A stretch of 58,270 nucleotides of DNA, taken from an uncultured Candidatus Saccharibacteria bacterium (GTDB taxonomy: Bacteria; Patescibacteriota; Minisyncoccia; Phycocordibacterales; CAIZLB01). Both the position numbers and the translations under genes were made by a program. The DNA lies in contig CAYXQC010000005.1 in the NCBI GenBank assembly GCA_964467385.1, forward strand, positions 1 to 58,270, written 5' to 3'. The notes under the pieces were generated by a model. That model made no database searches, was not told where the DNA came from, and saw only the letters and a program-made list of their open reading frames with translations. Below are positions 923-54,690 of the stretch, in pieces. Position 1 is the stretch's first letter, and each line of letters opens with the position of its first letter.

Positions 923-951
923 TTTACATATTAAATTTAGTGTTATATAAT
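923..951 (+). promoter_or_regulatory. Sigma70-type promoter of the MYG1-like cassette
   Basis: TTTACA (923-928), 17-nt spacer, TATAAT (946-951). It lies about 130 nt upstream of ATG 1083. Confidence 0.55.
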
Positions 952-1082
952 ATAAATTGACTCAGATGCTCACAGAAGCAACTTCCCTGTCCTACGCTAG
1001 GACTTTGAAGATCTGATGCTGGTACGTTGAAAACCATGACCCATACAAAGGCATAGGGTCGCAAAAAGAAAGGAGGTGGGCC

Positions 1083-2258
1083 ATGAGCTCACCAGATACA
1101 CAAGACCAAACACAAGCACCAGAACAGGCACAAAAACCACCGCACACATTGAAATCTCTGTTTGAAGCCGTTCATCAAGAACGCGACGAACTCCGAGTAA
1201 CAGTTCATAGTGGAGTTTTCCACATCGATGAGGCAATTTGCCTCGCAATGGTAAAATTCCTTCTTGATGACTACAACGATGGAGCTACCCGTTTCAAGTA
1301 CACGTTGACAATGTTGGTTCGTCGGAGTCGTGATCCAGAAGTAATTCAGAATTCAGACATCGTGATTGACGTTGGTGGGATCTACGATCCAGATTTGTAT
1401 CGGTACGATCACCATCAAGCAAATGGTGCTGGTCGACGTCCAAGTAAAGGAGACGTCGAGGGGACTCTTTATTCCGCAGCGGGTCTATTTTGGAAAGACT
1501 TCGGAGTGGAATTCTCCAAGTCGGTAGCAAGGCGGTGTACTAGGATCAAGTTGCAGGGTGGGAAACCTTTTCGCAAAGTCGCCCGCATCGTCGATAGTCA
1601 ACTGATCGAGGGTATTTGCGCACTGGATACCGGCGACGTTCGGCTATCATCAACAGGTGCAAAAATCCAGAGCATCTCCTCAGCATTCTCAATGTTAAAC
1701 CCGGTGGAAATCGGGAGTGACAAGATTGTTGATGATCAATACGATGCTCTCCAGGTCGGAACAAAGTTTGTTCAGCAGATCTTGATCGGTGCAGTAAAGC
1801 GCGCGATCGATTCGGTCTATCACAGGCCAATGCTGAATAAACTCCTCGAAAAGCAAAATTCCACCGAGGAGCCTCGCGTGCTGGTCCTAAATAACACAAG
1901 CCAGGCATGGAGGAGCGTCTTGACCAAAAACTCAGGAGTCCTTGTGGTAATCCAACCTGCAGCCGATGCCAATAATCCGCAACATCGAAATTGGAACGTC
2001 CTGGCCACAAGCCACAAGGGTGTCCAGCTCTTTGATTTCCCCGCCGAGTGGTATGGGGTCGAAAGTGGTCTCGACCGTATCACTGGGGTGCCTGGTGCTC
2101 TTTACTGTCACAACACTGGCTTCGCCGCTGGTGCTAAGACACGAGAAGGTGCCATTGCACTTGTCAGACTTGCCCTTATCGAATGGGACAAGACCGACCA
2201 TGGTGGCGGAACCTCCGATGGCGGAGGATTCGAAGAGGTGGACGATGAAGATGAATGA
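1083..2258 (+). CDS. MYG1/UPF0160-family metal-dependent hydrolase (DHH-like)
   Basis: Family signatures HSGVFHIDEAICLAM and VIDVGGIYDPDLYRYDHHQ. A textbook SD AGGAGG (1071-1076) sits 6 nt before the ATG. The region is visibly GC-rich. Confidence 0.8.
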   Translation: MSSPDTQDQTQAPEQAQKPPHTLKSLFEAVHQERDELRVTVHSGVFHIDEAICLAMVKFLLDDYNDGATRFKYTLTMLVRRSRDPEVIQNSDIVIDVGGIYDPDLYRYDHHQANGAGRRPSKGDVEGTLYSAAGLFWKDFGVEFSKSVARRCTRIKLQGGKPFRKVARIVDSQLIEGICALDTGDVRLSSTGAKIQSISSAFSMLNPVEIGSDKIVDDQYDALQVGTKFVQQILIGAVKRAIDSVYHRPMLNKLLEKQNSTEEPRVLVLNNTSQAWRSVLTKNSGVLVVIQPAADANNPQHRNWNVLATSHKGVQLFDFPAEWYGVESGLDRITGVPGALYCHNTGFAAGAKTREGAIALVRLALIEWDKTDHGGGTSDGGGFEEVDDEDE

Positions 2259-2313
2259 TGTCAGGTAAACCTTCAACCTGATCTACGGTGACAATGTAAC
2301 AGCTCGTCATCAA

Positions 2314-2345
2314 GGGACCCGCTCACACCGGGTCCCTAAATTTTT
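2314..2345 (+). terminator. Rho-independent terminator after the MYG1-like gene
   Basis: GGGACCCG ctcaca CGGGTCCC followed by TAAATTTTT. Confidence 0.8.
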
Positions 2346-2392
2346 GCCTGGATTTTGATGGGATTTTTATAAATTCTTTATTTTCGTAATAG

Positions 2393-2420
2393 TTGACATA
2401 TGTTTTTATAGTGGTATAAT
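2393..2420 (+). promoter_or_regulatory. Near-consensus promoter with extended -10
   Basis: TTGACA (2393-2398), 16-nt spacer, TGgTATAAT (-10 at 2415-2420). Confidence 0.7.
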
Positions 2421-2452
2421 TACACAAGCAAAGCTTAAAGCACTTTTACACA

Positions 2453-2713
2453 GTGGCTTGGATAAGATTTGAGGTAAGCATAAAGCGGTTCAACATCTGG
2501 ACCTCTCCATGCCTACCTCAAAGCAATTCCGCTGCGAGAGGGCTCATGGATATAATGACAACATCATCATTGAAACCACCAATAGAACTGGAGATCCTGA
2601 CGATGACCCTCTTCCTGGCCATCGCACTCAAGATGAAAGAAAAGAAACCTTTCATCCCCGATGAAGCACTACGCTGCAGCATCAACCACCGTGTACTTCA
2701 CGGCGTAAACTGA
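2453..2713 (+). CDS. Hypothetical small protein. Start uncertain: GTG 2453 or ATG 2548. The transcript could instead be non-coding.
   Basis: 86-codon ORF bracketed by the 2393 promoter and the 2719-2795 terminator. No recognisable domain. One hydrophobic stretch (LTMTLFLAIAL). Confidence 0.3.
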   Translation: MAWIRFEVSIKRFNIWTSPCLPQSNSAARGLMDIMTTSSLKPPIELEILTMTLFLAIALKMKEKKPFIPDEALRCSINHRVLHGVN

Positions 2714-2718
2714 AACAC

Positions 2719-2795
2719 AACCAGCCGTACCGCATAGATCATAAACCTTAACTGGTCCAGATCGAACGCAGTACAGGCTGGTGTTTTTTATTTTT
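2719..2795 (+). terminator. Long-loop terminator-like structure
   Basis: CCAGCCGTAC ... GTACaGGCTGG encloses about 40 nt and is followed by TGTTTTTTATTTTTT. Confidence 0.5.
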
Positions 2796-4379: not shown

Positions 4380-5669
4380 ATGAAAGAAAAAACTCAGGAA
4401 AAACTTAAGCCGGTACAGATTCACAAGAGTCACATACACGCCGAGTCTACGGCTAAACATTACGGCTTCACTCATTTTACAAATGTAAAAGTTGAAAAAC
4501 AGGATCTTTCGAAGGTAAAAAACTTTAAAGATAGCAAGAAAAATTCTTACAATGACGAGGACTCTGTTTTGAGTTTTGATAATTTACTTGAAGAAAAAAT
4601 TGCTCTGATGCGTGCATACATTGTCGACAAAACAATGAACGATCTCAATCAACCTCCGATGGTCTACTACAGTGGTCCAATCGATGGAAATCCACACGCA
4701 AACACCCCTAAGCACCACGGTCATTCATTCAATCTCGACATCATTGGTAACGCCAAGAGTATTGCCGACGCTATTATCATTGAAACAGCTTTTGTAATTC
4801 TCAAAGAACACCTCGGCGAAAAATTTGAAAAAGATAAAACAAAAACGGTTGAATTAATGATAGAACTCAATTCAATTGGTGATAAAGATTCTTTTGCACG
4901 ATTCAGTAAAGAGTTCAGTACTTTTTGCAAAAAACGACTCGGTGAACTTCCAACAGAATGGCGACAATCTTTTAAAAAAGACCCTCTTTCTATTTTCAAG
5001 TGTACTGACGAGACATGCACCACTCTTCTCGATGAAGCCCCTAAGCCAATGAGTTATCTTTCTGAGCAGAGTAGAGATCATTTCCGAGAAGTGCTCGAAT
5101 ATGTAGAATCTCTCAATATTCCCTACACCATCAACCATTCACTTATCGGCAGCAAACACTATTCTTCAGGTACAATTTTTCAAATCGTAAAAATTACAAG
5201 TGAAGAAAACAAAAACGGTAAGCGGACTGAAAAGCGTGAGGTTCTCTGTATTGGTGAAAGATACAACACCGTTTCAAAGAAAGCTTGGGGTAAAAAAGAA
5301 ATCCCTGCTGTTGGTGCAACTCTTCTTGTCGACGAGAAAGCTGTAAAGCACATGAAGGCTCCAGTAAAACCAAAGAAAGAAGTTGCTCCGAAATTCTTCT
5401 TCATTCAGCTTGGATACGATGCGAAACTTAAAAGTCTTGCGATTATCGAGATGCTCCGTGTTGCAAACATTGCGGTTCACCAATCTCTTTCACGAGACAA
5501 AATCACTAGCCAACTCATGGCGGCAGAAAAAATGGCCGTGCCTTACATTTTGATTCTTGGACAAAAAGAAGCGCTTGAAGATAGTGTCACTGTCCGACAT
5601 ATGCACACTCGTGTTCAGGAAACTGTACTGATTAAAGAGTTGATCGCGTATCTTAAAAAACTAGTATAG
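4380..5669 (+). CDS. Histidyl-tRNA synthetase-like protein with degenerate catalytic motifs plus a class-II anticodon-binding domain
   Basis: HisRS-like layout (ELNSIGD; DPLSIFKC; IGERYN in place of GGGRYD; PAVGATLLVDE). The C-terminal anticodon-binding fold is clear (FFFIQLG...VPYILILGQKEALEDSVTVRHM). Confidence 0.6.
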   Translation: MKEKTQEKLKPVQIHKSHIHAESTAKHYGFTHFTNVKVEKQDLSKVKNFKDSKKNSYNDEDSVLSFDNLLEEKIALMRAYIVDKTMNDLNQPPMVYYSGPIDGNPHANTPKHHGHSFNLDIIGNAKSIADAIIIETAFVILKEHLGEKFEKDKTKTVELMIELNSIGDKDSFARFSKEFSTFCKKRLGELPTEWRQSFKKDPLSIFKCTDETCTTLLDEAPKPMSYLSEQSRDHFREVLEYVESLNIPYTINHSLIGSKHYSSGTIFQIVKITSEENKNGKRTEKREVLCIGERYNTVSKKAWGKKEIPAVGATLLVDEKAVKHMKAPVKPKKEVAPKFFFIQLGYDAKLKSLAIIEMLRVANIAVHQSLSRDKITSQLMAAEKMAVPYILILGQKEALEDSVTVRHMHTRVQETVLIKELIAYLKKLV

Positions 5670-5731
5670 AAAGTGTATCCAAATATGCGTAGCATATGTT
5701 TTGTGAATTAACTTTTATTCTTACGAAATTT

Positions 5732-5790
5732 AAAAACACCTCACAGATCCTTTGTACGAATGGGTACGAAGAAATCTGATGAGGTGTTTT
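5732..5790. terminator. Bidirectional terminator between convergent genes
   Basis: AAACACCTCACAGAT ... ATCTGATGAGGTGTTT, with an A-run upstream and a T-run downstream. Confidence 0.7.
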
Positions 5791-5822
5791 ACATTGAGCC
5801 TATCAATCAATGTGGATGCGGA

Positions 5823-6452
5823 TCAAGTCGCTGGATAGGGTTCACAAAGAACGATGTTGTGACCTCGAGGAATACCACCAGGGAGTGGTGAAGCATTGGC
5901 CACGGAGATCAGCGTCCATTTTTCGTTGCTCGACTTGGTGTGACCAATGACGGCGTAGCGGACCAAGCCATTGACCTGGATTGGAATGACGTTACAAGTC
6001 TTGCCGATAGGTGTCCGATGATCGGATTTTTTTGGACAACTCAAAAGCAGAAACAAGAGAACGTACCACGGAACGACTCCGTTGAATTCATTTTCCTGGA
6101 TTACTTTCGAGAGGATTTCGTGACAAATAGTCTTCTCTACGACTTTTTTGCGTAAAGTAACAGTTTGTCGAATCTCAGGTAGTTCCTTTTCCAGATCAAC
6201 ACCAAGAAAATCAAACGCTTCGCTGATGAGTTTCGGTGACGTAACCGTTTCAGCCAGCATCTGCAGAAGATCTTGATTCCTGAATCCATCGATCTGAGAC
6301 ATTCTCTCGAGAAGTGCAATGTACCAGCCATCCCACTCCATTTGATAAATCTCTTCCAGACCATGGGACTTCTGGGAGTGCATATCCAATGTAGCAAGGA
6401 CATTTTGAAAAGACGCTCGTCGAGCCGCCGGAGGAAGCATTACTGCATTCAT
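5823..6452 (-). CDS. Hypothetical protein (GC-rich cassette)
   Basis: 209-codon ORF with no recognisable motif. GC is visibly higher than in the flanking genes. The terminator at 5732-5790 lies downstream. Confidence 0.55.
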   Translation of the reverse strand: MNAVMLPPAARRASFQNVLATLDMHSQKSHGLEEIYQMEWDGWYIALLERMSQIDGFRNQDLLQMLAETVTSPKLISEAFDFLGVDLEKELPEIRQTVTLRKKVVEKTICHEILSKVIQENEFNGVVPWYVLLFLLLSCPKKSDHRTPIGKTCNVIPIQVNGLVRYAVIGHTKSSNEKWTLISVANASPLPGGIPRGHNIVLCEPYPAT

Positions 6453-10244: not shown

Positions 10245-10261
10245 ATGGTGAGTAGTCCGAT

Positions 10262-10564
10262 CTACTGACCAAGAAGTGCTTTGAGTTTCTTCTCTTCTTT
10301 CCACAGGATTGGCCAGATGATTTTCGATTGCAGGATGAGACACGCCACGATCGACGGTACCAGCAATTTCACCAGATCAGTGATGGTGTAGTTCAAAATC
10401 AAACTGGGCAAGTTGAAACAAGAAGTGCTGACCAACATCATCAGAAGAAAGAGACCTGCTTGGATTGCATAGCCAGCAAACTTCACGATCATGATGTTGA
10501 ATTTTGCATTTTCAATCTCTGCCTTCTGAAGGTTTTTCCTAAACGCATTTCTACTTGTATGCAT
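10262..10564 (-). CDS. Hypothetical small membrane protein
   Basis: 100 codons with two hydrophobic segments (AGYAIQAGLFLLMMLVS; LLVPSIVACLIL). GC-richer than its neighbours. Confidence 0.45.
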   Translation of the reverse strand: MHTSRNAFRKNLQKAEIENAKFNIMIVKFAGYAIQAGLFLLMMLVSTSCFNLPSLILNYTITDLVKLLVPSIVACLILQSKIIWPILWKEEKKLKALLGQ

Positions 10565-10699
10565 AATTTCTCCTCAGTAATATGAAGGTTGTTGTTTTTT
10601 GACTTAAGTTCAGTGCCACTTGGCATCGAAATATTGTCACAATATTATATAAAAGTCAATACATGTGAATTTCCCCTTCTGCCGTATAATTGTAAATCT

Positions 10700-11712: not shown

Positions 11713-11786
11713 TGGGCGATAGAGGGTTCGAACCTCTGAACCTTCCGCACGTCAAGCGGACGCTCTACCAACTGAGCTAATCGCCC
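11713..11786 (-). tRNA. tRNA-Val (anticodon GAC), no encoded CCA
   Basis: Reverse complement GGGCGATTAGCTCAGTTGGTAGAGCG TCCGC TTGACGT GCGGA ... AGAGG TTCGAAC CCTCT ATCGCCC A. A cloverleaf can be drawn by hand. Confidence 0.9.
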
Positions 11787-11873
11787 TAATTTAAACCTAA
11801 AATAAGCCACATACGGCCGATTTCTATACAAAATGAGAATATCACGGCCTGGTCCCATTTTCAATCAGTTTTT

Positions 11874-11902
11874 TTGCATTTTTGGTGAAAAAGTGTTATA
11901 TT
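11874..11902 (+). promoter_or_regulatory. Promoter of tRNA-Glu
   Basis: TTGCAT (11874-11879), 17-nt spacer, TGtTATATT (-10 at 11897-11902). The tRNA starts 12 nt later. Confidence 0.6.
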
Positions 11903-11914
11903 TCCCAAACAAAT

Positions 11915-13973: not shown

Positions 13974-16391
13974 ATGTCAGAAGAAACCATAAAAAAAGCC
14001 AGCACAGGGGACGCCTCAGTCACGCCTATAGACCCAGTCACCCAAGCTGCGCCAGCAAACTCAGCATACATTGCCCCAAACATCCCAGCCCCTCTCCTAA
14101 AGGCCTACGACCCTAAAGCAACCGAGGAAACTGTATACAAGCTCGAGGAAGCTAGCGGTCTTTTTCATCCCGAAACAGCCGTAGCTGAAGGTATCACAGC
14201 GAAGGACGCTAAGAGCTACACCATCATCATGCCTCCGCCAAATGCCAACGGTCGGCTTCACGTAGGACATTCACTCACCATTACACTTCAGGATATTTTT
14301 ACACGATATCATCGCATGAAAGGCGAAAAGGCTTTGTATGTTCCAGGTGCAGATCACGCTGGATTTGAAACGCAAATTGTATATGAGCGGAAGCTTGAAA
14401 AAGAAGGACGTTCACGATTTAATATGAATCCTGAGGAGTTGTACAAAGAAATTTACGCATTTACGATTGAAAATAAAAAGTTCATGGAAGATGATGTCCG
14501 ACGAATTGGTGCATCATGTGACTGGTCACGAGAAAAGTTTACACTTGATCCCGATGTTGTAACTTCTGCACAAGAAACATTTAGAAAAATGTTTAGAGAT
14601 GACCTTGTATACCGTGGCAAAAGAATCGTAAACTGGTGTGCGAAACATCAAACTTCCCTTTCAGATGTGGAAACAGAATTCATCGAGAAAAAAGATCCAT
14701 TTTATTATTTCAAATACGGCCCTTTTGAAATTGCCACAGCTCGACCAGAAACGAAGTTCGGCGACAAATATGTAGTAATGCACCCAGAAGATACACGATA
14801 TGCAGCATACGAACACGGCCAGAAGATAGAGCTTGAATGGATCAATGGACCAATCACTGCAACGATTATTAAAGATAGCGCAATTGATATGGAATTCGGT
14901 ACAGGTGTAATGACTATCACTCCATGGCACGATCCGGTGGATTTTGAAATTGCACAGCGCCACAACCTTGATTTTGAACAAATTATTGATTTTAAGGGAA
15001 AGCTTTTACCGATTGCGCAAGAGTTTGCAGGTATCCATATCAGCAAAGCACGACCTCAGATTGTAGAAAAACTAAAAGCTAAAGGTCTTCTCGTAAGGGT
15101 TGATGAAAATTATACGCACAATGTGAAATGCTGCTACAAATGCGAAACTCAAATCGAACCACAAATCAAAGATCAGTGGTTTGTAAAAATGAAACCACTC
15201 GCAGAAAAAGCGTTAGAAGCCGTGAAGTCGGGTTCAGTTCGTTTTTTACCTGAAAATTACGAGAAAATATTCACATACTGGATGGAAAACACCCTCGACT
15301 GGAACATTTCTCGCCAGATTGTTTGGGGTATCCCAATTCCTGCAAAAGTTTGTGTTGCATGTAATCAAGGTTTTCTCGACACTGACATAGCAGATACATG
15401 CCCAACTTGTAACCAACCGCTCACAAAAGATACTGACACATTTGACACTTGGTTTTCTTCTGGACAGTGGCCACTTTTGGCACTCGGATATTCACATGGT
15501 ACTCGAAAAAACACTTACAGAGACGGCAGTGAGAGTGCCGAAATCGACGGTGATGTTGCCACATATCACCCGACTCAGGTTATGGAAACCGGTCGCGATC
15601 TCATTTTCAAATGGATTCCGCGAATGGTTATTTTCTCACTCTATCTAAAACAGCAAATTCCGTTTGAACTTGTGTACCTAAACGGACTCGTAAACGACTC
15701 GAAAGGTCAAAAAATGTCAAAGTCAAAAGGTAATGTAACAAGCCCAATTGATTTGATTGAAAAATATGGTAGCGACGCACTCCGAATGTGGCTCGCAATC
15801 GGAAATACTCCAGGAAATGACCTTTCAATGGCTGAGGACAAGATCAAAGGGTATAAACATTTCGGAAATAAGCTTTGGAATATTACACGGTTTATTCTTT
15901 CAAGCACCGAACCACTTAGTATTTCTTATGACCAAAACTTTTCATCATGGAGTGAAGCAGATCAAAAACTTATCGCGGAGCGAAATGAACTTTGGACAGC
16001 GATTACACGTGAATTCAATGAGTACAAAATTCACTTGGCAGCAGAAAAATTGTACCACTATGCATGGAGTACTCTTGCCGACGTCATTCTTGAAGACTCA
16101 AAAGTTATCTTTAATGGCCGTGTTGCAAAAATAGACGAATCAAATCCTGAAAAAAATACTGAAGCTGCTGAACCTGGCACAGATGCCGACAAACAATCAC
16201 GTGCACAATTCCTTCTTCATACACTTCGGATGATTATCACTTCACTCCACCCGATAATGCCGCACATCACTGAAGAATTATGGTCAATTTTGAACACAGG
16301 TAAATCAATTCTTGAACGCGACCATGCTACAATTAAGCCAGCCGATCTTTTGATGGCTCGCGAATGGCCCCTTTTCTCTCACAATCAATAG
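13974..16391 (+). CDS. valS: Valine--tRNA ligase (short form, no long C-terminal coiled coil)
   Basis: PPPNANGRLHVGHSL (HIGH box), PGADHAGFETQ and KMSKSKGN. Confidence 0.9.
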   Translation: MSEETIKKASTGDASVTPIDPVTQAAPANSAYIAPNIPAPLLKAYDPKATEETVYKLEEASGLFHPETAVAEGITAKDAKSYTIIMPPPNANGRLHVGHSLTITLQDIFTRYHRMKGEKALYVPGADHAGFETQIVYERKLEKEGRSRFNMNPEELYKEIYAFTIENKKFMEDDVRRIGASCDWSREKFTLDPDVVTSAQETFRKMFRDDLVYRGKRIVNWCAKHQTSLSDVETEFIEKKDPFYYFKYGPFEIATARPETKFGDKYVVMHPEDTRYAAYEHGQKIELEWINGPITATIIKDSAIDMEFGTGVMTITPWHDPVDFEIAQRHNLDFEQIIDFKGKLLPIAQEFAGIHISKARPQIVEKLKAKGLLVRVDENYTHNVKCCYKCETQIEPQIKDQWFVKMKPLAEKALEAVKSGSVRFLPENYEKIFTYWMENTLDWNISRQIVWGIPIPAKVCVACNQGFLDTDIADTCPTCNQPLTKDTDTFDTWFSSGQWPLLALGYSHGTRKNTYRDGSESAEIDGDVATYHPTQVMETGRDLIFKWIPRMVIFSLYLKQQIPFELVYLNGLVNDSKGQKMSKSKGNVTSPIDLIEKYGSDALRMWLAIGNTPGNDLSMAEDKIKGYKHFGNKLWNITRFILSSTEPLSISYDQNFSSWSEADQKLIAERNELWTAITREFNEYKIHLAAEKLYHYAWSTLADVILEDSKVIFNGRVAKIDESNPEKNTEAAEPGTDADKQSRAQFLLHTLRMIITSLHPIMPHITEELWSILNTGKSILERDHATIKPADLLMAREWPLFSHNQ

Positions 16392-18083: not shown

Positions 18084-18112
18084 TTGACATACTACCACCA
18101 GAGACATATTGT
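18084..18112 (+). promoter_or_regulatory. Promoter of GC-rich cassette
   Basis: TTGACA (18084-18089), 17-nt spacer, TATTGT (18107-18112). Confidence 0.5.
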
Positions 18113-18139
18113 ATATTTTGAAGAGGTACATCCTGTACC

Positions 18140-18838: not shown

Positions 18839-18862
18839 CCTTGTGAACAGCTTGATTTCTTT

Positions 18863-37940: not shown

Positions 37941-37984
37941 AAGGTGTACACCTTGCGGAGGCTTATATTCAGCTGAATATAAGC
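37941..37984 (-). terminator. Two adjacent perfect palindromes downstream of gyrB (probable tandem terminator hairpins)
   Basis: AAGGTGTACACCTT (37941-37954) and GCTTATATTCAGCTGAATATAAGC (37961-37984). A T-run follows on the minus strand (ttctcgtcagTTTTTT). Confidence 0.55.
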
Positions 37985-41966: not shown

Positions 41967-41995
41967 TTGCGTTGTTTAAAAAAGAGTGGTATATC
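41967..41995 (+). promoter_or_regulatory. Promoter of the 42056-42802 cassette
   Basis: TTGCGT (41967-41972), 17-nt spacer, TGgTATATC (-10 at 41990-41995). Confidence 0.5.
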
Positions 41996-42055
41996 TACGG
42001 CAGAATAAATCGTACAGAGACAACTATCCAACCCAAAACTGCACATTCACAACCT

Positions 42056-42802
42056 ATGGATCGTCACTATTCATTTCGAGCAAACTCCTCGAACAATCTT
42101 ATGTTGGCCACAGGACTACTAACAGCCTTAAGCGCCAACATCAAACTTCATCTGCTTGATGAAGTTTCGGAATCGCCCCTGGTGAGACCCGGTTCTATTT
42201 TTTGCTATTCACACAGTTCAGGCATTCTCATGCACGAAATATACGCGCAAGCACTTTGGAAAACCTTGACTGACCTTGCAGAAAACGGGTCTTTCACGCT
42301 TCTGAATCTAACAAGCAACATAGCGTTTGTGGTTGATTCGAAGCTTGAACATAAATCAAAAGCCTCATTCCCGGTCAAAGTCCGGAAACTCAAAGAGCGG
42401 GACAAGGACACTATTCGATATTTCAGCGAAAGGGCCAGATCTGTAAAAAATATTTTTTCGCATGGAGTGGAGGGGTTTCAAACCTTAATCCATGTCGTGG
42501 AAACCTGGAACTTTCGCGGCCATAAAACGCTACGTGATGTGTACACTGAACATAGGCAGATATATGAGATAGCACTATCTAAAGATCTGTCGATCGGTAC
42601 GCTGATTCAATGTGTGGCTTACGAAACGATTGAAGATTTGTGCCCTGAAATTCTTCAAGATACAATCTTTTTGCACAGAAGGACACCACACGAGATCGAA
42701 TTCAGACGTGCACAAAAATTGCTCGAGGAAATAGCAGCTCATACCCTCCAAGATCAGATTGTGCACTGGCTCGAAAATCTCGGCTACGAATTCGGCAAAT
42801 AA
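42056..42802 (+). CDS. Hypothetical protein (GC-richer cassette)
   Basis: 248 codons from the first ATG after the predicted transcription start. No recognisable motif. A terminator follows. Confidence 0.55.
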   Translation: MDRHYSFRANSSNNLMLATGLLTALSANIKLHLLDEVSESPLVRPGSIFCYSHSSGILMHEIYAQALWKTLTDLAENGSFTLLNLTSNIAFVVDSKLEHKSKASFPVKVRKLKERDKDTIRYFSERARSVKNIFSHGVEGFQTLIHVVETWNFRGHKTLRDVYTEHRQIYEIALSKDLSIGTLIQCVAYETIEDLCPEILQDTIFLHRRTPHEIEFRRAQKLLEEIAAHTLQDQIVHWLENLGYEFGK

Positions 42803-42838
42803 CAGCCTAACCGTTTCTCTTGAGCTTAGATACTCGAA

Positions 42839-42878
42839 ACACCCGCATCACAGCAATACAAGCTTGGTGCGGGTTTTA
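42839..42878. terminator. Terminator between convergent genes
   Basis: ACCCGCA ... TGCGGGT followed by TTTT. Confidence 0.65.
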
Positions 42879-43879: not shown

Positions 43880-43908
43880 TTGCAATTTATTAATTTTATG
43901 TCATAATT
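43880..43908 (+). promoter_or_regulatory. Promoter of the 44056-44358 cassette
   Basis: TTGCAA (43880-43885), 16-17-nt spacer, CATAAT/ATAATT (43902-43908). Confidence 0.5.
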
Positions 43909-44055
43909 GCCCCAGAGCTTGAAGATGAGAATGGATCCGGCTTCGGCTACTACCTATTCAAATCTTTAAACACCCTGATCTTTGAGTTCTGTCTCGGTGC
44001 TGATGCATTGAACAAACTTGGAGTGCTGAAAACTTCACCTCAACACCTTGAAAAC

Positions 44056-44358
44056 ATGCAACGCTCTAATCAAACCGAGACGGCACCACCCGTACCCATA
44101 ATCACATGGTTCATCTGGCTTAGCCTCCTTTTTATCTCAATCTGCCTCGCAAGTTGGTACGCGGTCGGAGGCTGGCACAAAGTCGAAGACATTGTCAACT
44201 TTTTTGTATACGCAGGTGACGCCTATACAAAATCCGCCTCATCCGCAGAATGGGCAGTGATGCTTGGATGGGCAGTTCTCCTTGGATCCCCTATGTGGAT
44301 AACGGTCAAGATAGCAACCTTAGCCCGTGGAGAGCAACCAAGCCTCCATGGCCGCTAA
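44056..44358 (+). CDS. Hypothetical small membrane protein (GC-rich cassette; start ATG 44056 or TTG 44008)
   Basis: Two or three hydrophobic segments (IITWFIWLSLLFISICLASWY; WAVMLGWAVLLGSPMWI). A strong terminator follows. Confidence 0.5.
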   Translation: MQRSNQTETAPPVPIITWFIWLSLLFISICLASWYAVGGWHKVEDIVNFFVYAGDAYTKSASSAEWAVMLGWAVLLGSPMWITVKIATLARGEQPSLHGR

Positions 44359-44391
44359 CAGCTGCTGTTTAGCATTCACCTGTCGGATACC

Positions 44392-44431
44392 AAAAAGCCC
44401 GCGCAACTCATCGTCGCACGGGCTTTTTTTA
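44392..44431 (+). terminator. Rho-independent terminator
   Basis: AAAAAGCCCG ... CGGGCTTTTTTT. Confidence 0.8.
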
Positions 44432-44990: not shown

Positions 44991-45392
44991 CTACTGAATA
45001 TCTGAAATGTCCTCAAGAGATTCGTCTATTTCATCTTCATCCGGCATCCGTTTCTTATAGTTCCGGACTAAAATACTCTTCTTTTTCTTTTTTACTTGAG
45101 ACGCCGAATCTTTGCCATTTCCAGCACTCGCAAATGGATTTAGGACAAAACCAGTCAGAAATTTCCAAAGACCATTCACTTTCGAAGCCTCCTCCCGAAT
45201 AGCGTGTCGAACATGTGCAATATCAGCAGCAAGATGTTGACTTTCTCGATGCATATGTTTTGCAATTTTCGCGAAGCGACGAACAATCGAAACTACGTAA
45301 AACAAAATCACAGCACAAAGAAACCCGAGGATGATCACAATAATAGTTGTGATGTAGAAAAATATATCTGCGTGAATGATTGTTGTATCCAT
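44991..45392 (-). CDS. Hypothetical membrane protein
   Basis: N-terminal TM segment FFYITTIIVIILGFLCAVILFYVV, followed by a charged tail. Confidence 0.5.
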   Translation of the reverse strand: MDTTIIHADIFFYITTIIVIILGFLCAVILFYVVSIVRRFAKIAKHMHRESQHLAADIAHVRHAIREEASKVNGLWKFLTGFVLNPFASAGNGKDSASQVKKKKKSILVRNYKKRMPDEDEIDESLEDISDIQ

Positions 45393-46700: not shown

Positions 46701-47660
46701 TTATTTATCGAGTGGATTAAAGCTCGTCACTCGTACATTTCCAGAAGTATCAATACCAACCGTTGCAACTGCCGTGTAATACCCATCAGCATCCTGATAT
46801 GAAACGAGTGCTCGGTTTGGACCATCAAAAGTTACATCTGTTACTTCATACGAAGTTCGAGATCGAACTGGTGCAAGATTATTGATATTTGCAGCAATAA
46901 ATGAATTCACCTTTGCACGATCAGCTTGTGAAGTTACCGTTGTCGAAGGTCGAGTTGTAGGAGCCGTAGTCACTGGAGCTGCTGCACCCGGTCGTACCGT
47001 TGCAGGGAATGATGAAGCTGAAGTAGCTGGATTTTTTGTTTCAGTATCGTCAGTCATTTCGGTACCGTCAGTTGAAGTGGGCATATTTGTATACCAGTAG
47101 TAGGCACCACCTCCGAGTGCAAGGAGAACCATGAGACCAATGATTGCAAAAAACATAGTCTTCTTGCCTTCATGTGGAGGTACCCCATTTGTGCCACTTG
47201 AGTTTAAAATTTTATTGACTTCATTTGAAAGTGGTGAAGAAGTTGGCTTTGGTGCAAAATCTGAGCTTTGATTAAAAGCAGGTCTAGGGGCCTGGTTTGG
47301 TGTTGTGTTTGAGTTCATCATATTAGATACAGACGCTGCAGGTGCAGATGATGACTGAGGCTTTGGCGCAGCTGGAGCTGTCTGGGCAGTCATTGAAGAC
47401 GCTGGTGTAAATGGACTGAACTTTGGTGTTTGCAACTGAGTTGGTTGTACTGGAGCTTGTTGCGGTGAAGCAGAAGGAACGGGTTGTGTGTGCACAGGAG
47501 TAAACGAAGGTTGTACAGGCATTTGAGGTTTAGGCACAAAAGATTGTTGAGACTGAGAAGAAGACTGTGAGGGCATACCTTGAAAATTCGGAGTAGTATT
47601 AGAAGTATTACCACCCATACCAGTGTTTTGATTGTTATTTGTATTTTCCATAGTATTCAT
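46701..47660 (-). CDS. Hypothetical low-complexity (Q/P/S/T-rich) single-pass membrane protein
   Basis: Long P/Q/S region, a TM segment MFFAIIGLMVLLALGGGAYYWY, and an extracytoplasmic domain of about 100 aa. I prefer ATG 47660. Confidence 0.55.
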   Translation of the reverse strand: MNTMENTNNNQNTGMGGNTSNTTPNFQGMPSQSSSQSQQSFVPKPQMPVQPSFTPVHTQPVPSASPQQAPVQPTQLQTPKFSPFTPASSMTAQTAPAAPKPQSSSAPAASVSNMMNSNTTPNQAPRPAFNQSSDFAPKPTSSPLSNEVNKILNSSGTNGVPPHEGKKTMFFAIIGLMVLLALGGGAYYWYTNMPTSTDGTEMTDDTETKNPATSASSFPATVRPGAAAPVTTAPTTRPSTTVTSQADRAKVNSFIAANINNLAPVRSRTSYEVTDVTFDGPNRALVSYQDADGYYTAVATVGIDTSGNVRVTSFNPLDK

Positions 47661-47739
47661 ATTGTACCACACCTGATGAGTGTAAATAGGTCAAAATGAG
47701 TCAATCTTGCAAAAGATGTTGTTCAGATATGGTGCCTAT

Positions 47740-50825: not shown

Positions 50826-51416
50826 CTACTTAACCCATCGCATTGACGCTCTAAGATCTAGGTATTCTGGAATTACTAACTTAACCAATTTCCAAAAGTT
50901 TGGACTGTGATTAAATTCTTTGAGATGGCACAGTTCATGAACAATTACATAATCACATTCACGCTCAGTAAGACCAGCGAGTCTCGTGCTGAAATTCAAA
51001 TTTCCTCTTTTCGAGCAACTTCCCCATCGAGTCTTTGTATTTTTTATGAAAATATTTTTGAAAGTAAAACCGTGCAGACCATACTGTTCACTATATATAG
51101 TACGGAAATGTTTTATACGACTTTCAATATATATTTTAAGTTCGCCACGAGTGTGGATATTTTTTGTGAACTGAATCGCCGAACTTGCCTCTCTATTTTC
51201 ACTTGCATCTTTTCTTTGTTTGACTCGTGCTTCAATTCTAGTTTTTTGTGCAAGAATCCAACTTTCTTTTTTCTTCAAAAATACTTCTGCTTTTCTGATC
51301 AATAAATTCTGAAGAACACTTGTCTTTCGATATGGAACGACTAGGAGAATTTCACCATCTCTTTTTACAGTGATACTGATGCGTTTTGCTTTTTTAGAAA
51401 TACGAGTTTGGAGCAT
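50826..51416 (-). CDS. YgjP/DUF45-family (SprT-like) zinc metallohydrolase
   Basis: WGSCSKRGNLNF...YVIVHELCHLKEFNHSPNFW (HExxH). I chose ATG 51416, because the longer ORF runs through an upstream terminator hairpin. Confidence 0.8.
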   Translation of the reverse strand: MLQTRISKKAKRISITVKRDGEILLVVPYRKTSVLQNLLIRKAEVFLKKKESWILAQKTRIEARVKQRKDASENREASSAIQFTKNIHTRGELKIYIESRIKHFRTIYSEQYGLHGFTFKNIFIKNTKTRWGSCSKRGNLNFSTRLAGLTERECDYVIVHELCHLKEFNHSPNFWKLVKLVIPEYLDLRASMRWVK

Positions 51417-51454: not shown

Positions 51455-51498
51455 CAAAAATAAAACCCGCAGAGGACGTTTTTGACGTCATGCGGGTT
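51455..51498 (-). terminator. Rho-independent terminator of the 51537-51833 unit
   Basis: On the minus strand: AACCCGCA ... TGCGGGTT followed by TTATTTTT. Confidence 0.75.
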
Positions 51499-51536
51499 TG
51501 TGTTTACAATTTCCGTCGAGAGAACTTCGGACCAGA

Positions 51537-51833
51537 TCAGTTCTGGCACATTTGTGCAACTTTCTTTGGATGATATCCCCCACTTCCAGTAGGCATATGC
51601 CTGAAACGACATGGTGGCGGACTGAAACGAGTTTCAGCAGTGGGTGGACGTGACCATTTGTGTGCGTCTCCATGCTGGTATCGATGTGGGATCTCTCCAG
51701 ATTTCAGAAAAATCTCCTTCTGCTCGACCTGATGTTTTCTTGGGACAACAAAGCGCGAGAGAAAGCTCGAAAAGAAACAGAGTGCTGGACTCGAGGTCCG
51801 TGACAAACGACTAGTTAAGGATACCATGGGCAA
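51537..51833 (-). CDS. Hypothetical small basic His/Pro/Arg-rich protein. Coding status uncertain and it could be a structured RNA.
   Basis: 98-codon ORF starting at TTG. An internal GAAGGAG (51720-51714) hints at a product of about 57 aa. All three minus-strand frames are open over part of the region. GC-rich, with many short hairpins. Confidence 0.3.
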   Translation of the reverse strand: MPMVSLTSRLSRTSSPALCFFSSFLSRFVVPRKHQVEQKEIFLKSGEIPHRYQHGDAHKWSRPPTAETRFSPPPCRFRHMPTGSGGYHPKKVAQMCQN

Positions 51834-52399: not shown

Positions 52400-52448
52400 A
52401 TAAAAACCACCCTTTCCTTTGTTTTGTTAAACTCAGGAAAAGGCGGTG
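52400..52448 (-). terminator. Terminator after the 52482-52934 gene
   Basis: On the minus strand: CACCGCCTTTTCC ... GGAAAGGGTGG (imperfect) followed by TTTTTATTTTTTT. Confidence 0.6.
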
Positions 52449-52481
52449 TAGAAGACCAAACATCCAATAGTTTGTCTGAAT

Positions 52482-52934
52482 TTACTTCGGATAAATGAGC
52501 TTCGCAGGAATTGACACACCAACCGGTTGGTGAATTTTCTGATTTGCACCAAGAAGGTTGTATGGCGTACCAAGCTCCTTATTGCTGTCGTTATAGAAAT
52601 GAGCAAGGACGCTTCCGTCTTTCTCCTTCTTTAGAACGACACTCTCAACTTGTCGGACAAGGGACTCTTCGATCTTGACCAAAAACCCTTCTCCGACCGC
52701 CGAGTTGGCAATGATATAGGCAAGGCCTCGATCATCATTTCCGGTGCTACCACTTGGTATGATCATGTCGACCTTGAAAGGCCGACCAATCAATGCATCG
52801 TAACGCGTGATGTTTTTGACCGGTTCAGCAGCACTGGTCTTGTTGCAATGCGCACCCACAAAAAGTAATGCACAGAGCCCGACGAGGCTGATGACGATGG
52901 CAATTCTGGAGGTAATCTTATCGTTAGTTTTCAA
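52482..52934 (-). CDS. Hypothetical secreted or anchored protein (GC-rich cassette)
   Basis: AAGGAG (52947-52942) lies 7 nt before TTG 52934. Signal or anchor sequence ITSRIAIVISLVGLCALLFVGAHC. The ORF track extends the frame to GTG 53021. Confidence 0.55.
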   Translation of the reverse strand: MKTNDKITSRIAIVISLVGLCALLFVGAHCNKTSAAEPVKNITRYDALIGRPFKVDMIIPSGSTGNDDRGLAYIIANSAVGEGFLVKIEESLVRQVESVVLKKEKDGSVLAHFYNDSNKELGTPYNLLGANQKIHQPVGVSIPAKLIYPK

Positions 52935-53213
52935 GTTTTTTCTCCTTTTTTCGGTGTTGAATTTTCTGAGTGGTGTTTTCGCACTTCCTTTTTTTGAGGC
53001 TGCGAGCTTGAAATATACCACGAATATTGTATTTTACTAGGTATTTACATTTTATATATTATGTGTTAATAAATACAAACTCTCCAAGTAACCTGCAGTG
53101 AAGCTCTTTAACAGGGCCTTTCTGAGGAATTTGAAAAACAAGTCACCGCATACAAAAATGCGGAAAACTTTAAAGCAACATAAAACCAACTCATACAACC
53201 AGAGGATAGAACC

Positions 53214-53630
53214 ATGGCAAAAAAAGCAACGAAGAGACCGACCGAAAAAACCAAGACCACATCTTGCATCCACGTTCACATTGACTGCGAAGACGACAAG
53301 ACCACGGAATCAGTTGAGCAAATTTTCAAAGGGTTGAACAAAGTGTTCATCGGGAAAAAAGGTGAGACCAAATTCAAGATCGTCAAAGCAAAGAACATGG
53401 CTGCAATAGTCGTGACTGACTACAAAGATGGAGCGAAACGCATCATCGACAGTAAACTAGAGGACATGGTCCTGATCCGTATCGTCGATGATCGACGAAA
53501 AGCAGAGTTTGAATCTTACGAAGACAGAGCTTTGCAGTATTACAAGGTTCCTGAATTCGTACTGGCTATGACAATTCTCAGGCTCAATATCTGTGAACTG
53601 ATCAACCAACGCTGTCCCGACGGAGACTGA
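53214..53630 (+). CDS. Hypothetical protein (GC-rich cassette)
   Basis: 138 codons with a basic N-terminus and no recognisable motif. A leader of about 135 nt starts from a TTTACA-17-TAATAA promoter at 53044-53072. Confidence 0.5.
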   Translation: MAKKATKRPTEKTKTTSCIHVHIDCEDDKTTESVEQIFKGLNKVFIGKKGETKFKIVKAKNMAAIVVTDYKDGAKRIIDSKLEDMVLIRIVDDRRKAEFESYEDRALQYYKVPEFVLAMTILRLNICELINQRCPDGD

Positions 53631-53937
53631 TGATTGCATAAATCAATCAGACCTAGACACCACTTTTCATGACCTAACACGTCAAGTTGAGTGGTTTTTT
53701 ATTTGTCTTGCACACCATGGTTACATTTTAAATCAACAAGATGCCAAGCTATTGGACCATTACTTGCTATTTACAACATTAAATATATGTATTATGATGC
53801 TGTCTCACGTCCATTGACATATACATACCAATATTTGCAAATATGGTTCGTAAAGCCATGTTTTGTTTGATTTTGCGCATGTTACGGACAGTCTTCTACC
53901 TGAAACCCAGCACATACACCAGCAACCACCAACAACC

Positions 53938-54573
53938 ATGACTATCAGCAACCATAAAGCACGCCCTCAGACAGTCGAGGAAGCAGTCTTCTTCGCCTTT
54001 CAACGCTTTCACGGGCATTTCCGCAACCCATCAACAGGAGCTCAGGGTGAAAACCCTTTCCGACCTGATTGGAATATCGTCAACTTGGGCATCACAATCG
54101 ACACCATCTCTCGCTGGATCTCGATTGGAAAACCAGATCCGATGATTCAGATCAGGTCAGAATGTGCGTTCATTGAAGGTTTGATGAAAGATGCAACACC
54201 GACACAGAAGCACACGGTAGAGATGATCTTCCGCTCAGAAAAGTACGCAATGCATTTGATGAAAATCGAACCACACTCAGAAGAAGTGGAGAATCACCAA
54301 GAGAAACCTGTAAACCCATTGAAGATGGATCACCCAATCGACAACAGGACGCGACACCAGAAAGAACGTCAACATGCCAGCTTGGCAAGAATCACATCTC
54401 GCCAGATCCTGATTGGACTCTCGACACTTCTTCTTCAGGAAATCTCCCGCTCGGCAGGCTTTCCTGTCGCAGAGTCGAGTATCATTCCTATTTTCGAAGT
54501 CTCATCCGAAGTGACATCGACAACCGTAGCAAAACACCCAGAGTACACACAAGTCGTCCCAACCACTTGTTGA
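53938..54573 (+). CDS. Hypothetical protein (GC-rich cassette; start ATG 53938 or TTG 53863)
   Basis: 211-236 codons with no recognisable motif. TTGACA at 53814-53819 lies upstream and a terminator lies downstream. Confidence 0.5.
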   Translation: MTISNHKARPQTVEEAVFFAFQRFHGHFRNPSTGAQGENPFRPDWNIVNLGITIDTISRWISIGKPDPMIQIRSECAFIEGLMKDATPTQKHTVEMIFRSEKYAMHLMKIEPHSEEVENHQEKPVNPLKMDHPIDNRTRHQKERQHASLARITSRQILIGLSTLLLQEISRSAGFPVAESSIIPIFEVSSEVTSTTVAKHPEYTQVVPTTC

Positions 54574-54625
54574 TCGAAGAAGTTCTAAGGCACCCAGACA
54601 TAAAATCTGGTACCCTAAAAACAAA

Positions 54626-54690
54626 CCACCCCTCTCTTCACTTCCCTATCCAAGGGTCAAAGTCGAGAGAACGGGTGGTTTTTTATTTTT
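54626..54690 (+). terminator. Rho-independent terminator (bulged stem)
   Basis: ACCACCCCTCTC ... GAGAGAACGGGTGGT followed by TTTTTTATTTTT. Confidence 0.65.

Follow-up and report, generated by a model that had tools for sequence, protein, structure and literature searches.

GC-balanced, strongly folded single-gene units in an AT-rich Paceibacterota genome: recent imports or a resident gene class?

GC-rich islets in AT-rich genomes are normally read as signs of horizontal gene transfer (HGT). Whether this reading holds is the question raised by a stretch of 58,270 nucleotides on contig CAYXQC010000005.1 (the 58-kb window in what follows), in which short, GC-rich, mostly single-gene units lie scattered between AT-rich housekeeping genes, and for which an original prediction had proposed either the repeated acquisition of foreign expression units or a special class of genes for secreted or envelope effectors, maintained under mutational and selective conditions of their own. 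Here the HGT reading fails, and the evidence points, with moderate confidence, to a resident, clade-wide class of hypervariable, GC-balanced, leadered and strongly folded single-gene units that occupy fixed junctions and would be subject to a separate RNA-level regime. The GC-rich units are called cassettes and labelled C1, C1b and C2 to C15 (Table 1), the remaining AT-rich genes are called the backbone, and labels with the prefix L denote loci of relatives.

The genome from which the window stems belongs to the Paceibacterota (Parcubacteria, Taylorbacteria-like) within the candidate phyla radiation (CPR); the same sequence forms part of a 185-kb contig (JACCDT011579363.1, assembly GCA_013565695.1). 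Relatives were gathered by a GyrB-based scan with one genome per species, resulting in 61 loci, of which 60 are labelled as Patescibacteria-group, candidate-phylum or unclassified metagenome-assembled genomes (MAGs) and one, L058, as a Thermococci archaeon; the nearest GyrB relatives, with 80-86% identity, carry the labels Paceibacterota or Taylorbacteria. Around the GyrB gene the comparison comprises the low-GC relatives L005-L007 and L010-L012 as well as the high-GC relatives L008 and L009, the clade spanning genomes of 40% and 52% G + C. Elsewhere it includes L003, whose backbone has about 70% nucleotide identity to the window, and the 92%-identical relative L004. Close relatives are also held by independent assemblies, and C12 to C15 are covered by no relative's stretch.

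Composition and signals of two kinds of transcription unit

With respect to raw G + C content, the window as a whole has 40.8%, the 15 blocks listed in the original prediction have 46.1% when pooled, and the sequence outside these blocks has 39.6%. Clearly GC-rich are the blocks 29167-30128 (53.5%), 33199-33722 (54.4%), 51455-51833 (47.8%), 43880-44431 (47.5%), 923-2795 (47.0%), 24302-24958 (46.6%), 53814-54690 (46.2%), 5732-6452 (45.6%) and 52400-52934 (45.4%), whereas six of the 15 are near the background, namely 10250-10570 (42.1%), 18084-18897 (41.9%), 36900-37170 (43.2%), 53044-53700 (40.9%), 30147-31106 (43.0%) and 41967-42878 (43.4%). In turn, some backbone stretches equal the weaker blocks in raw G + C content, such as the C-terminus of FtsZ, the N-terminus of the DEAD-box helicase and the gene at 46701-47672, but this is an amino-acid effect because the G + C content at codon third positions (GC3) is only 0.19-0.34 there. 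The mosaic exists and is visible at codon third positions, and raw G + C content discriminates it poorly.

The 13 cassette open reading frames (ORFs) have a GC3 of 0.42-0.57 (mean 0.505) and the 40 backbone ORFs one of 0.25-0.41 (mean 0.317, sd 0.037), two ranges that are disjoint (Mann-Whitney p = 4e-8); within the window the cassettes thus lie outside the spread of the backbone, the compositional outcome on which the original prediction depended. At four-fold degenerate sites the base frequencies are A.37, C.13, G.12 and T.38 in the backbone and nearly uniform in the cassettes (A.28, C.26, G.21, T.25). By GC3, the blocks 10250-10570, 30147-31106, 41967-42878 and 53044-53700 are brought into the class despite their low raw G + C content, 18084-18897 is borderline and 36900-37170 finds no support, and the claim of 15 GC-rich blocks therefore stands for most of them, three or four being weak, although six have only 41-43% raw G + C. 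The spot counts behind that claim are borne out at 29401-29460 (~65%) and 33421-33480 (~60%), but the value of ~37% given for ftsZ is unrepresentative, the whole gene having 45% G + C. Along the sequence, the G + C content rises right after the promoter and falls back at the terminator, the non-coding leader included, and the cassette borders are sharp and AT-rich.

In the stretches of L005-L007 and L010-L012, the median GC3 is exceeded by more than 0.12 in 2-5 of ~20 ORFs, and no ORF falls short of it by as much, compared to 11 of 53 ORFs exceeding it in the window. The dinucleotide relative-abundance signature differs by 0.057 between cassettes and backbone, compared to 0.039 +/- 0.015 (maximum 0.106) for backbone subsets of the same size, and is therefore host-like, i.e., inside the backbone's own spread. 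The cassette products contain more Cys, Pro, Trp, Gln, His and Arg, and less Lys, Asp, Glu, Ala and Asn.

Two simple accounts of the split were tried and ruled out. A rule of strand or replication orientation does not apply, as no more than about half of the cassettes run against their neighbours, and the G + C content of the cassettes is not an ancestral relic, since the high-GC L008 and L009 are nested inside a low-GC subclade of the GyrB tree and are thus derived. These two genomes now have 51-52% G + C and a backbone GC3 of 0.55-0.72, with GyrB amino-acid identities to the 40% GC relatives that are still 82-88%, and represent a rapid, genome-wide compositional shift.

The two kinds of unit also differ in the signals around them. 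Matches to the promoter consensus in 11-12 of 12 positions are found upstream of C1 (923), the small unit at 2393, C6 (29167) and C7 (30147), and four of the five strongest terminator hairpins, at 2313, 18863, 30095 and 31068, end cassettes, such that near-perfect promoters or strongest terminators mark C1, C4, C6 and C7; the minus-strand units C8 and C12 close with long hairpins and T-runs that were missed by the terminator scan. The strong terminators that the original prediction had seen behind many units are thereby recovered for these six. Its near-consensus promoters are present at C1, the 2393 unit, C4, C6 and C7, but equally good matches precede backbone genes (29009 on the minus strand, 35530 on the plus strand, 48756 on the minus strand), and the total number of promoter-like sites in the window is no higher than expected from shuffled sequence.

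In line with the long leaders of 50-250 nt claimed for the cassettes, most of their starts have a -10-like box 65-150 nt upstream. A closer -10 box, 4-13 nt ahead of the ATG, in turn occurs in 15 of 43 backbone genes and in 2 of 13 cassettes (backbone starts with such a close TATAAT-like box are seen, e.g., at 10700, 21729-24206, 27631-28971, 35569, 44991-45392, 46701-47651 and 50826-51416); the mRNAs of these backbone genes are therefore probably leaderless, which, judged from the position of the boxes, would imply widespread leaderless translation in the organism. Shine-Dalgarno (SD) motifs are essentially missing from the backbone, which had been described as leaderless and SD-poor, and this agrees with the report that a Parcubacteria subgroup often lacks the anti-SD motif (PMC9297842). 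The textbook SDs ascribed to some cassettes are confined to MYG1 (AGGAGG), C3 (AGGAG) and C14 (GAGG), the other cassettes having none, and no leader motif is shared among cassettes beyond C/A-rich tracts ahead of the ATG. The promoters of C3 (10562-10680, minus strand) and C8 (33720-33830, minus strand) share 20 nt, ATTGACTTTTATATA[A/T]TATT, with 95% identity, which is the sole above-chance similarity among cassette flanks. No flanking repeats are shared between cassettes, the likeness of flanks consisting of promoter-like AT-rich words, and comparisons of flanks and between cassettes thus agree with the original prediction in finding no repeats of the attC, terminal inverted repeat or target-site duplication type.

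Excess predicted folding of the cassette messages

Weak selection for local structure is said to be widespread in bacterial coding regions. In the present case, the strongly negative folding scores of C1b (z = -5.2) and C8 (z = -6.6) led to a scan of the whole window: in 200-nt segments scored against dinucleotide shuffles, the sense strand of the cassettes has a mean z of -2.08, with 44% of segments below -2, compared to -0.16 and 9% in the backbone (p = 4e-9). The excess of predicted structure persists under synonymous-codon shuffling of the central 420 nt of the coding sequence (CDS), which keeps protein, codon usage and composition (cassettes mean z = -2.52, 13 of 14 negative; backbone -0.10, n = 37; p = 5e-6), and also when shuffling is restricted to 30-codon blocks and local GC3 is kept (-1.87 vs -0.16, p = 4e-5). 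In a separate folding run three cassettes scored -2.5, -1.1 and -5.4 and three controls +0.3, +0.1 and -1.0. Cassette mRNAs are predicted to be ~0.066 kcal/mol per nucleotide more stable than those of the backbone, and about half of this difference comes from codon arrangement and not from composition.

The same split is found in seven low-GC relatives (cassette ORFs -2.32, n = 25, vs -0.23, n = 52; p = 2e-7). In the high-GC L008 and L009, 10 junction-orthologous genes picked without regard to G + C content have a mean of -2.49, compared to +0.07 in the backbone (p = 4e-4); there the class is not GC-richer than the backbone and is still over-folded. Furthermore, folding is stronger on the sense strand (-2.46) than on the antisense strand (-1.75; Wilcoxon p = 0.0025, n = 49), and RNA rather than DNA is therefore indicated. 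Fast protein evolution alone was ruled out as a cause, because the AT-rich and fast-evolving orphans at 31454-33136, 46701-47672 and 54821-55630 have a low GC3 and a z near 0.

Fixed junctions, variable occupants and the competing readings

In L005-L007 and L010-L012, GC3-rich ORFs (0.44-0.56) are found at the junctions of C6 to C11 in the same orientation, most cassette junctions hold other GC3-rich ORFs in relatives, and several are empty in some genomes. Synteny, to which the original prediction had looked for a decision on acquisition, is accordingly divided: homologues of C2, C6 and C7 stand at the same sites, but C3 is missing from L003 (where the spacer is 84 bp), C10 from L005 and L007, and C11 from L007. 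Cassette families are common to the sister lineages L011 and L008/L009.

The divergence of the occupants can be extreme. Between L005 and L006 the GyrB proteins are 95.7% identical and the products of the adjoining cassette only 23.5%. For the L,D-transpeptidase YkuD encoded by C7, the identity is 27% between L008 and L009 and 22% between L079 and L007, compared to 68% and 72%, respectively, for the neighbouring PKD-like gene; it amounts to 52% between L011 and L008 and to about 55-56% between the window and L079. As these identities do not track those of the PKD-like neighbour, distant alleles or paralogues have therefore been exchanged or differentially retained at a fixed site. For occupants of the same junction compared by pairwise BLASTP (C2 with the ORF of L003, C6 with L007, C8 with L006) the similarity is marginal or not significant, and homology is thus not demonstrated for those pairs. 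The cassette idea of the original prediction is upheld in so far as the occupants differ enormously between close genomes and are sometimes replaced, but not as regards foreign imports. Elsewhere in the window, tRNA-Val and tRNA-Glu are adjacent (11786-11913) whereas in L003 (8396-9175) a UPF0259-family gene that is AT-rich lies between them, and variable insertions in this clade can thus be AT-rich, too.

The explanation favoured here assumes two types of transcription unit. The first would be the AT-rich backbone (GC3 ~0.32), SD-less and often leaderless. The second would be a class of ~13-15 monocistronic units making up 19-20% of the window, each with its own promoter, a leader of 65-150 nt, usually its own terminator and a GC3 of ~0.5, whose products would be rapidly evolving, lineage-restricted and in more than half of the cases membrane-anchored, secreted or lipoprotein-like. 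Over short timescales the units would be inherited together with their flanks, and over longer ones the occupant would diverge beyond recognition, be lost, or be replaced by a very distant allele or paralogue. Their G + C content might be kept high by selection for strongly base-paired transcripts, and this folding would serve a separate post-transcriptional regime, in one version that of stable, poorly or conditionally translated leadered mRNAs in an otherwise leaderless-initiating cell; candidate purposes are to stabilise the message, to throttle translation or make it conditional, and to protect RNA that is poorly translated. Since pairing in an AT-rich genome needs G and C, such selection would explain why the elevation covers the whole transcript and ends at promoter and terminator, and also why the G + C content stays near 50% whatever that of the genome and persists through vertical descent. 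As to purpose, we infer from E. coli, where translation efficiency follows the structure of the entire ORF (Burkhardt et al. 2017, PMC5318159), that the folding may act on translation. The dedicated class of secreted or envelope genes under a different regime, the second option of the original prediction, is supported and made more precise by the GC3 split, the long leaders and a folding that exceeds what composition and codon usage provide.

Several points weigh against this explanation. All folds are thermodynamic predictions with z-scores from 20-100 shuffles, and the relatives were compared over stretches of ~20 kb each. The fold predicted for C2 does not recur in the orthologue with 94% identity, in which 11 of the pairs persist and 12 are disrupted, and the energy of the orthologue is no better than that after random placement of the same substitutions; RNAalifold returns two compensatory pairs for C2 and its orthologue, the method being biased towards finding such pairs. 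Only the overall stability of C2 is kept, which fits diffuse selection and equally a mutational origin of hairpins. The antisense strand is over-folded as well (-1.75), and part of the signal could therefore lie at the DNA level. C3, C15, C11 and C14 have little or no excess folding, while two backbone genes, at 13974-16391 and 35530-36783, have z <= -2. In addition, selection for folding does not explain the fast protein evolution or the fixed junctions. Allele replacement within the clade clearly operates, too, and may contribute to the composition.

A further reading, put forward only tentatively, is that of two-tier expression, in which housekeeping proteins would be made from leaderless AT-rich messages and envelope and orphan proteins from base-paired mRNAs that might be stored, masked or resistant to RNases or Rho and translated conditionally, e.g., upon host contact. 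If so, base composition would record an RNA-level regulatory code and not ancestry, and in GC-rich relatives the same code would be present without being visible.

More doubtful is a clade-internal accessory pool, for which the junctions would be recombination hot spots with the flanks as homology arms, the ~50% G + C content the average of the pool and the folding incidental. Exchange of this kind is suggested by the divergence off the genome tree outlined above for the cassette next to GyrB and for YkuD, by varying presence and absence at the junctions, by the occurrence of both 40% and 52% GC genomes in the clade, and by the nearest YkuD relatives being on Paceibacterota-like contigs. However, among 1.84 billion representative proteins C2 matches only the L004-type orthologue, i.e., its own 93% cluster, and marginally P0035 (E = 2.4e-4), so that a widely shared pool is not visible, and the cassettes keep a value of ~0.5 also in cases in which every close relative sampled is low-GC. 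Moreover, the folding excess due to codon arrangement, the sense-strand bias and the GC-rich non-coding leaders would be left unaccounted for. The pool is partly compatible with the favoured explanation rather than exclusive of it.

A local mutational regime could consist in GC-biased gene conversion at loci that recombine often, in a transcription-linked bias sparing rarely transcribed units, or in template-switch (quasi-palindrome) mutagenesis, each of which might at once increase the G + C content, generate hairpins and accelerate divergence. It would accommodate a G + C elevation that spans non-coding leaders as well as CDS, the over-folded antisense strand, the lack of conservation of the specific C2 fold and the very fast divergence of the loci, but is unlikely for several reasons: conversion tracts would grade into their neighbours instead of ending sharply at promoter and terminator, the class is over-folded without extra G + C in the high-GC relatives, contrary to what biased conversion predicts, sense is significantly more folded than antisense, and C2 is under ordinary purifying selection.

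The first option of the original prediction, the repeated and recent import of foreign single-gene units with the unameliorated composition of their donors, is very unlikely, and recent foreign acquisition is rejected. In relatives that come from unrelated samples, the same junctions are filled by ORFs that are likewise GC3-rich and identically oriented, and the homologues of C2, C6 and C7 in synteny match the cassettes in their GC3. In favour of import, the units have an atypical composition and are self-contained, their presence varies (C3, C10 and C11, see above), MYG1 has a textbook SD in an otherwise SD-less genome, and HGT and genomic islands have been reported for Patescibacteria in general, in the form of multi-kilobase islands and individual transfers (PMC12455944). 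Yet no outside donor was found in very large databases for the three cassettes searched: C2 has no relative outside its own cluster, the best matches of MYG1 are ~30% identical and come from CPR-like and Gram-negative contexts, and those of YkuD, 55-61% identical, are Paceibacterota-like, the one contig examined, that of P0039 (locus L079), having the same neighbour genes. As for mobility genes, there are no PHROG or PADLOC matches, no integrase among the called genes, and no att sites or inverted terminal repeats. The four-fold-site G + C content of the units stays within a narrow span (0.34-0.53), where mixed donors would spread wider, the dinucleotide signature is that of the host, and amelioration should be finished at a divergence at which synteny persists. 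Finally, import predicts no excess mRNA folding, particularly in high-GC relatives.

It is highly improbable that the pattern arises because some units are not protein genes but structured non-coding RNAs, or young proto-genes that are open only through the scarcity of stop codons in GC-rich sequence. C8, C11 and C12 are indeed uncalled in the source record, the short ORF of C1b stands behind a perfect promoter and is strongly folded (z = -5.2), the amino-acid bias of the products (Cys, Pro, Trp, Gln, His and Arg up) is as in random ORFs, and the structure prediction proposed for the orphans, run on the single sequences of C2 and C10, gave low AlphaFold2 confidence (pLDDT 39 and 35, respectively). 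But MYG1 and YkuD match Pfam domains, the substitutions in C2 are biased to third positions without indels, the C-terminal domain of C6 is kept at the protein level, chance ORFs of 140-390 codons at 50% G + C are very unlikely, a transmembrane segment or signal-like N-terminus is found in 8 of 14 products, and a search of Rfam 15 yielded two tRNAs at gathering score and nothing within the cassettes even at E <= 1. C2, C7 and MYG1 are shown to be genuine coding genes, and C1b, C8, C11 and C12 are doubtful in this respect.

The chimeric joining of an AT-rich genome to GC-richer sequence from another organism in the sample, which the original prediction had itself raised, is practically excluded even though the source assembly is very fragmented (>1.5 million contigs), as identical cassette proteins occur on three contigs of up to 313 kb, an independent Logan assembly links the C2 homologue with rpsU and ybeY, dozens of independent MAGs show the same pattern and the independent assemblies of relatives the same junctions, and the borders fall at promoters and terminators and not at arbitrary points.

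The individual units and what the class would mean

Three features define the class, namely a GC3 at least 0.10 above the backbone median, an own promoter with a leader of more than 60 nt, and a clearly negative z in the codon shuffle. All three are found in C1, C2, C5, C6, C7, C8 and C13 (the leader of C13 being ambiguous) and some of them in C4, C10, C11, C12 and C14, while C3 and C15 lack the folding.

Table 1. Coordinates, strand, composition and predicted folding of the units in the window. Unless stated otherwise, z is that of the synonymous-codon shuffle of the central 420 nt of the CDS; aa, amino acids.
Unit	Span	Strand	Features	G + C content	Folding z
C1	923..2337	+	promoter-like 923-951; ~130-nt GC-rich leader with AGGAGG; MYG1/UPF0160 CDS 1083-2258; terminator 2313-2337	GC3 0.48	-6.5
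C1b	2393..2795	+	perfect TTGACA-16-TGgTATAAT promoter 2393-2420 (12/12), then ~370-nt GC-rich transcript; short ORF 2453-2713 (86 aa), or 55 aa from ATG 2546		-5.2 (dinucleotide shuffles)
C2	5732..6620	-	orphan CDS 5823-6452 (209 aa) between HisRS-like gene and rpsU; leader ~125 nt	GC3 0.47	-3.55
C3	10250..10660	-	100-aa ORF 10262-10564 with two transmembrane-like segments, between ftsZ and thioredoxin-reductase-like gene; AGGAG ahead of ATG	raw 0.42, GC3 0.56	+0.3
C4	18084..18897	+	promoter-like 18084-18112; orphan transmembrane CDS 18236-18838 (200 aa); 13-bp terminator stem 18863-18894	GC3 0.39 (borderline)	-2.3 (global shuffle), -3.4 (local-block shuffle)
C5	24302..25100	-	CDS 24380-24958 (192 aa), N-terminal transmembrane anchor (residues 10-38) and globular part, between smc and rnc	GC3 0.52	-3.6 (codon), -2.5 (dinucleotide)
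C6	29167..30125	+	promoter 29167-29195; leader ~130 nt; CDS 29325-30071 (248 aa), Pro-rich N-terminus, transmembrane segment, conserved C-terminal domain; terminator 30095-30125	raw 0.55, GC3 0.55	200-nt segments reach -7.2 and -8.5
C7	30147..31098	+	perfect promoter 30147-30176; YkuD L,D-transpeptidase CDS 30246 (or 30270)-31049 with signal peptide; terminator 31068-31098	GC3 0.51	-2.4 (codon), -5.4 (separate folding run)
C8	33199..33810	-	CDS 33300-33722 (140 aa), small Pro/Gly/Cys-rich lipoprotein-like product, then long 3' hairpin and U-run	raw 0.57, GC3 0.57	-4.5 (codon), -6.6 (whole unit)
C9	36900..37170	+	spacer between convergent genes; only a 48-aa ORF 36950-37096; unsupported as cassette	raw 0.43	-4.3 (one structured 200-nt segment)
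C10	41967..42878	+	orphan CDS 41972-42802 (276 aa, TTG start), strand opposite neighbours	GC3 0.44	-3.65
C11	43880..44431	+	small transmembrane protein ORF 44056 (or 44008)-44358; leader ~150 nt	GC3 0.50-0.52	-1.2
C12	51455..51900	-	GC-rich transcript-like unit; hairpin and T-run 51455-51500; doubtful ORF 51537-51833 (~96 aa)	raw 0.48	-1.4 (whole unit), -1.95 (codon)
C13	52400..53060	-	CDS 52482-53021 (179 aa), anchored or secreted orphan; transmembrane segment residues 35-61	GC3 0.50	-2.4
C14	53044..53700	+	orphan CDS 53214-53630 (138 aa), divergent from C13; leader ~150 nt; GAGG ahead of ATG	raw 0.41, GC3 0.54	-1.6
C15	53770..54690	+	orphan CDS 53938 (or 53863)-54573 (211-236 aa)	GC3 0.51-0.52	-0.4 (central part, no excess); -5 to -7 in a strongly structured segment at 54601 (3' end)

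The products had been described as orphans with signal peptides or transmembrane anchors, or of Pro/Gly/Cys-rich composition. This applies to the eight of 14 with such N-termini or segments and, as to composition, to C8, but six of the 14 have no transmembrane or signal-like segment. The two exceptions that had been recognised, MYG1 and YkuD, are the sole matches in Pfam, and scans of the orphan products against Pfam, PHROGs and PADLOC (C10 among them) gave no matches. MYG1 matches PF03690 with E = 6e-46 and 157.9 bits (cut-off 22.1) over profile positions 2-318 of 318. At the site which MYG1 and C1b occupy in the window, upstream of pth, L003 has a GC-rich stretch (399-887, with a peak of 57-64% G + C at 601-800) that contains only an 80-aa ORF, beside an AT-rich 132-aa gene without recorded family match. 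C1b itself, with no match in Rfam or Pfam, might encode a small protein or act as a non-coding RNA.

The C2 orthologue of L004 shows 35 differences, distributed 7/6/22 over the codon positions, and no indels, and has diverged about as far as the S21 and YbeY genes next to it, which marks C2 as a true gene that has been passed on together with its flanks. On the same strand of the same site, L003 has a 648-bp segment of 52% G + C with a GC-rich 173-aa ORF. Similarity between the window (5601-5731) and L004 (1565-1726) ends abruptly ~90 nt downstream of the C2 stop codon; either the neighbour differs, or the short L004 contig is rearranged. Class membership of C3 is weak because of its codon-shuffle score.

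A homologue of C6 is found at the same position in L079 (52% identity over the C-terminal domain, E = 9e-23, GC3 0.58), where the order is PKD-like gene (61% identity, GC3 0.29), C6 homologue and YkuD (GC3 0.55); syntenic homologues of C7 are present in L007-L011, L054, L059 and L079. The YkuD of C7 matches PF03734 with E = 1e-9 and 39.4 bits (cut-off 23.4), and its catalytic stretch reads GVHEGKVHKTNLPSSHGCIRQ, including the SHGCIR motif; this corresponds to what we take to be the catalytic His ... Ser-His-Gly-Cys-x-Arg motif as defined for B. subtilis YkuD. C8 is one of a series of small proteins, lipobox-bearing and rich in Gly and Pro, whose position is conserved: at its site and in its orientation the relatives encode small lipobox-bearing, Gly/Pro/Tyr-rich proteins, and the L006 product also ends in GRWY. 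At the GyrB/CARDB junction of C9 the relatives hold cassettes, and at the C11 junction L005, L012 and L009 have other small ORFs in the same orientation. The putative product of C12 has a random-looking composition.

The backbone genes are of the reduced CPR type and include those for Pth, signal peptidase, S21, YbeY, FtsA/FtsZ, TsaD, a class I tRNA synthetase, RNase R, SMC, RNase III, NusB-NUDIX, sortase, GyrB, a Mur ligase and the DEAD-box helicase. NusB and the NUDIX hydrolase domain are fused in one ORF (26029-26949, minus strand), a fusion kept in L007 with 86% identity, and moderately related Paceibacterota under the accessions JACCDR and JACCDW have a DEAD-box helicase that is 75-76% identical. 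The spacer between a histidine-phosphatase-like gene and gyrB contains a perfect 24-nt palindrome (37961-37984). An intergenic element of ~80 nt with the core TTCTACTGAAATTTTCCTCTGCTCGTTGCAACTCGCAAGT is present in two inverted copies of 86% identity, one at 55966-56045 (plus strand) downstream of 55652-55948 and the other at 21632-21712 (minus strand) between the convergent RNase R and SMC genes; no copy is found in any fetched relative, and there is no Rfam match except for an adjacent sub-threshold rnk-leader.

With genomic islets and HGT hot spots the cassettes have in common a variable content at few fixed core-gene junctions, lineage-restricted atypical orphans and differing presence and absence. 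However, they are single-gene, lack integrases, tRNA targets and repeats, have host-like dinucleotides, travel with their flanks over short timescales and share an RNA-level property. Their G + C content also exceeds that of the host, unlike that of acquired genes and ORFans, which are reportedly AT-richer than their hosts as a rule. Hypervariable surface-antigen loci such as those of O-antigen and capsule likewise have a fixed position, extreme alleles off the genome tree, envelope products and a distinct composition, but are multi-gene biosynthetic clusters and usually AT-rich, in contrast to the scattered, single, GC-balanced and over-folded cassettes. Integron gene cassettes, too, are single-gene units inserted between genes, with many orphans among them; they are mostly promoterless and in tandem, whereas the units described here are scattered and have their own promoters, and neither an array nor a conserved structured flank motif of the attC type nor, among the called genes, an integrase was found. 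Type I toxin mRNAs and masked long-lived mRNAs resemble the cassettes in having their own promoter, a long structured 5' leader and a compact fold, and C1b, C3 and C11, with a small hydrophobic peptide behind a long folded leader, fit two of the type I toxin features and add small membrane proteins to the likeness; no partner for the third feature, an overlapping or adjacent antisense RNA, was identified, the products are not known to be toxic, and most of them have 140-390 aa and include enzymes. As in ORF-wide mRNA structure in E. coli (PMC5318159), structure extends over whole ORFs or transcription units and is encoded at synonymous sites, but there a continuum was seen by structure probing, while here the predicted folds form a discrete class (z ~-2.5 vs ~0) and the shift is coupled to the compositional and the leadered/leaderless splits.

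No description of a pattern of this kind was found in the searchable literature; its components (compositional islets, hypervariable surface loci, ORF-wide mRNA structure) are known, and their combination into a discrete, sequence-predictable class is new. As the folding signal outlasts the G + C contrast, compositional HGT detectors would mislabel a native, coherent gene class in CPR genomes. The class is predictable from the sequence alone by GC3 and codon-shuffle z, and points to candidate host-interaction genes. If the RNA-level reading is true, it would provide a clue as to which CPR orphan genes belong together, and a handle on how surface and interaction proteins are controlled in ultra-small symbionts with few ribosomes and no SD mechanism.

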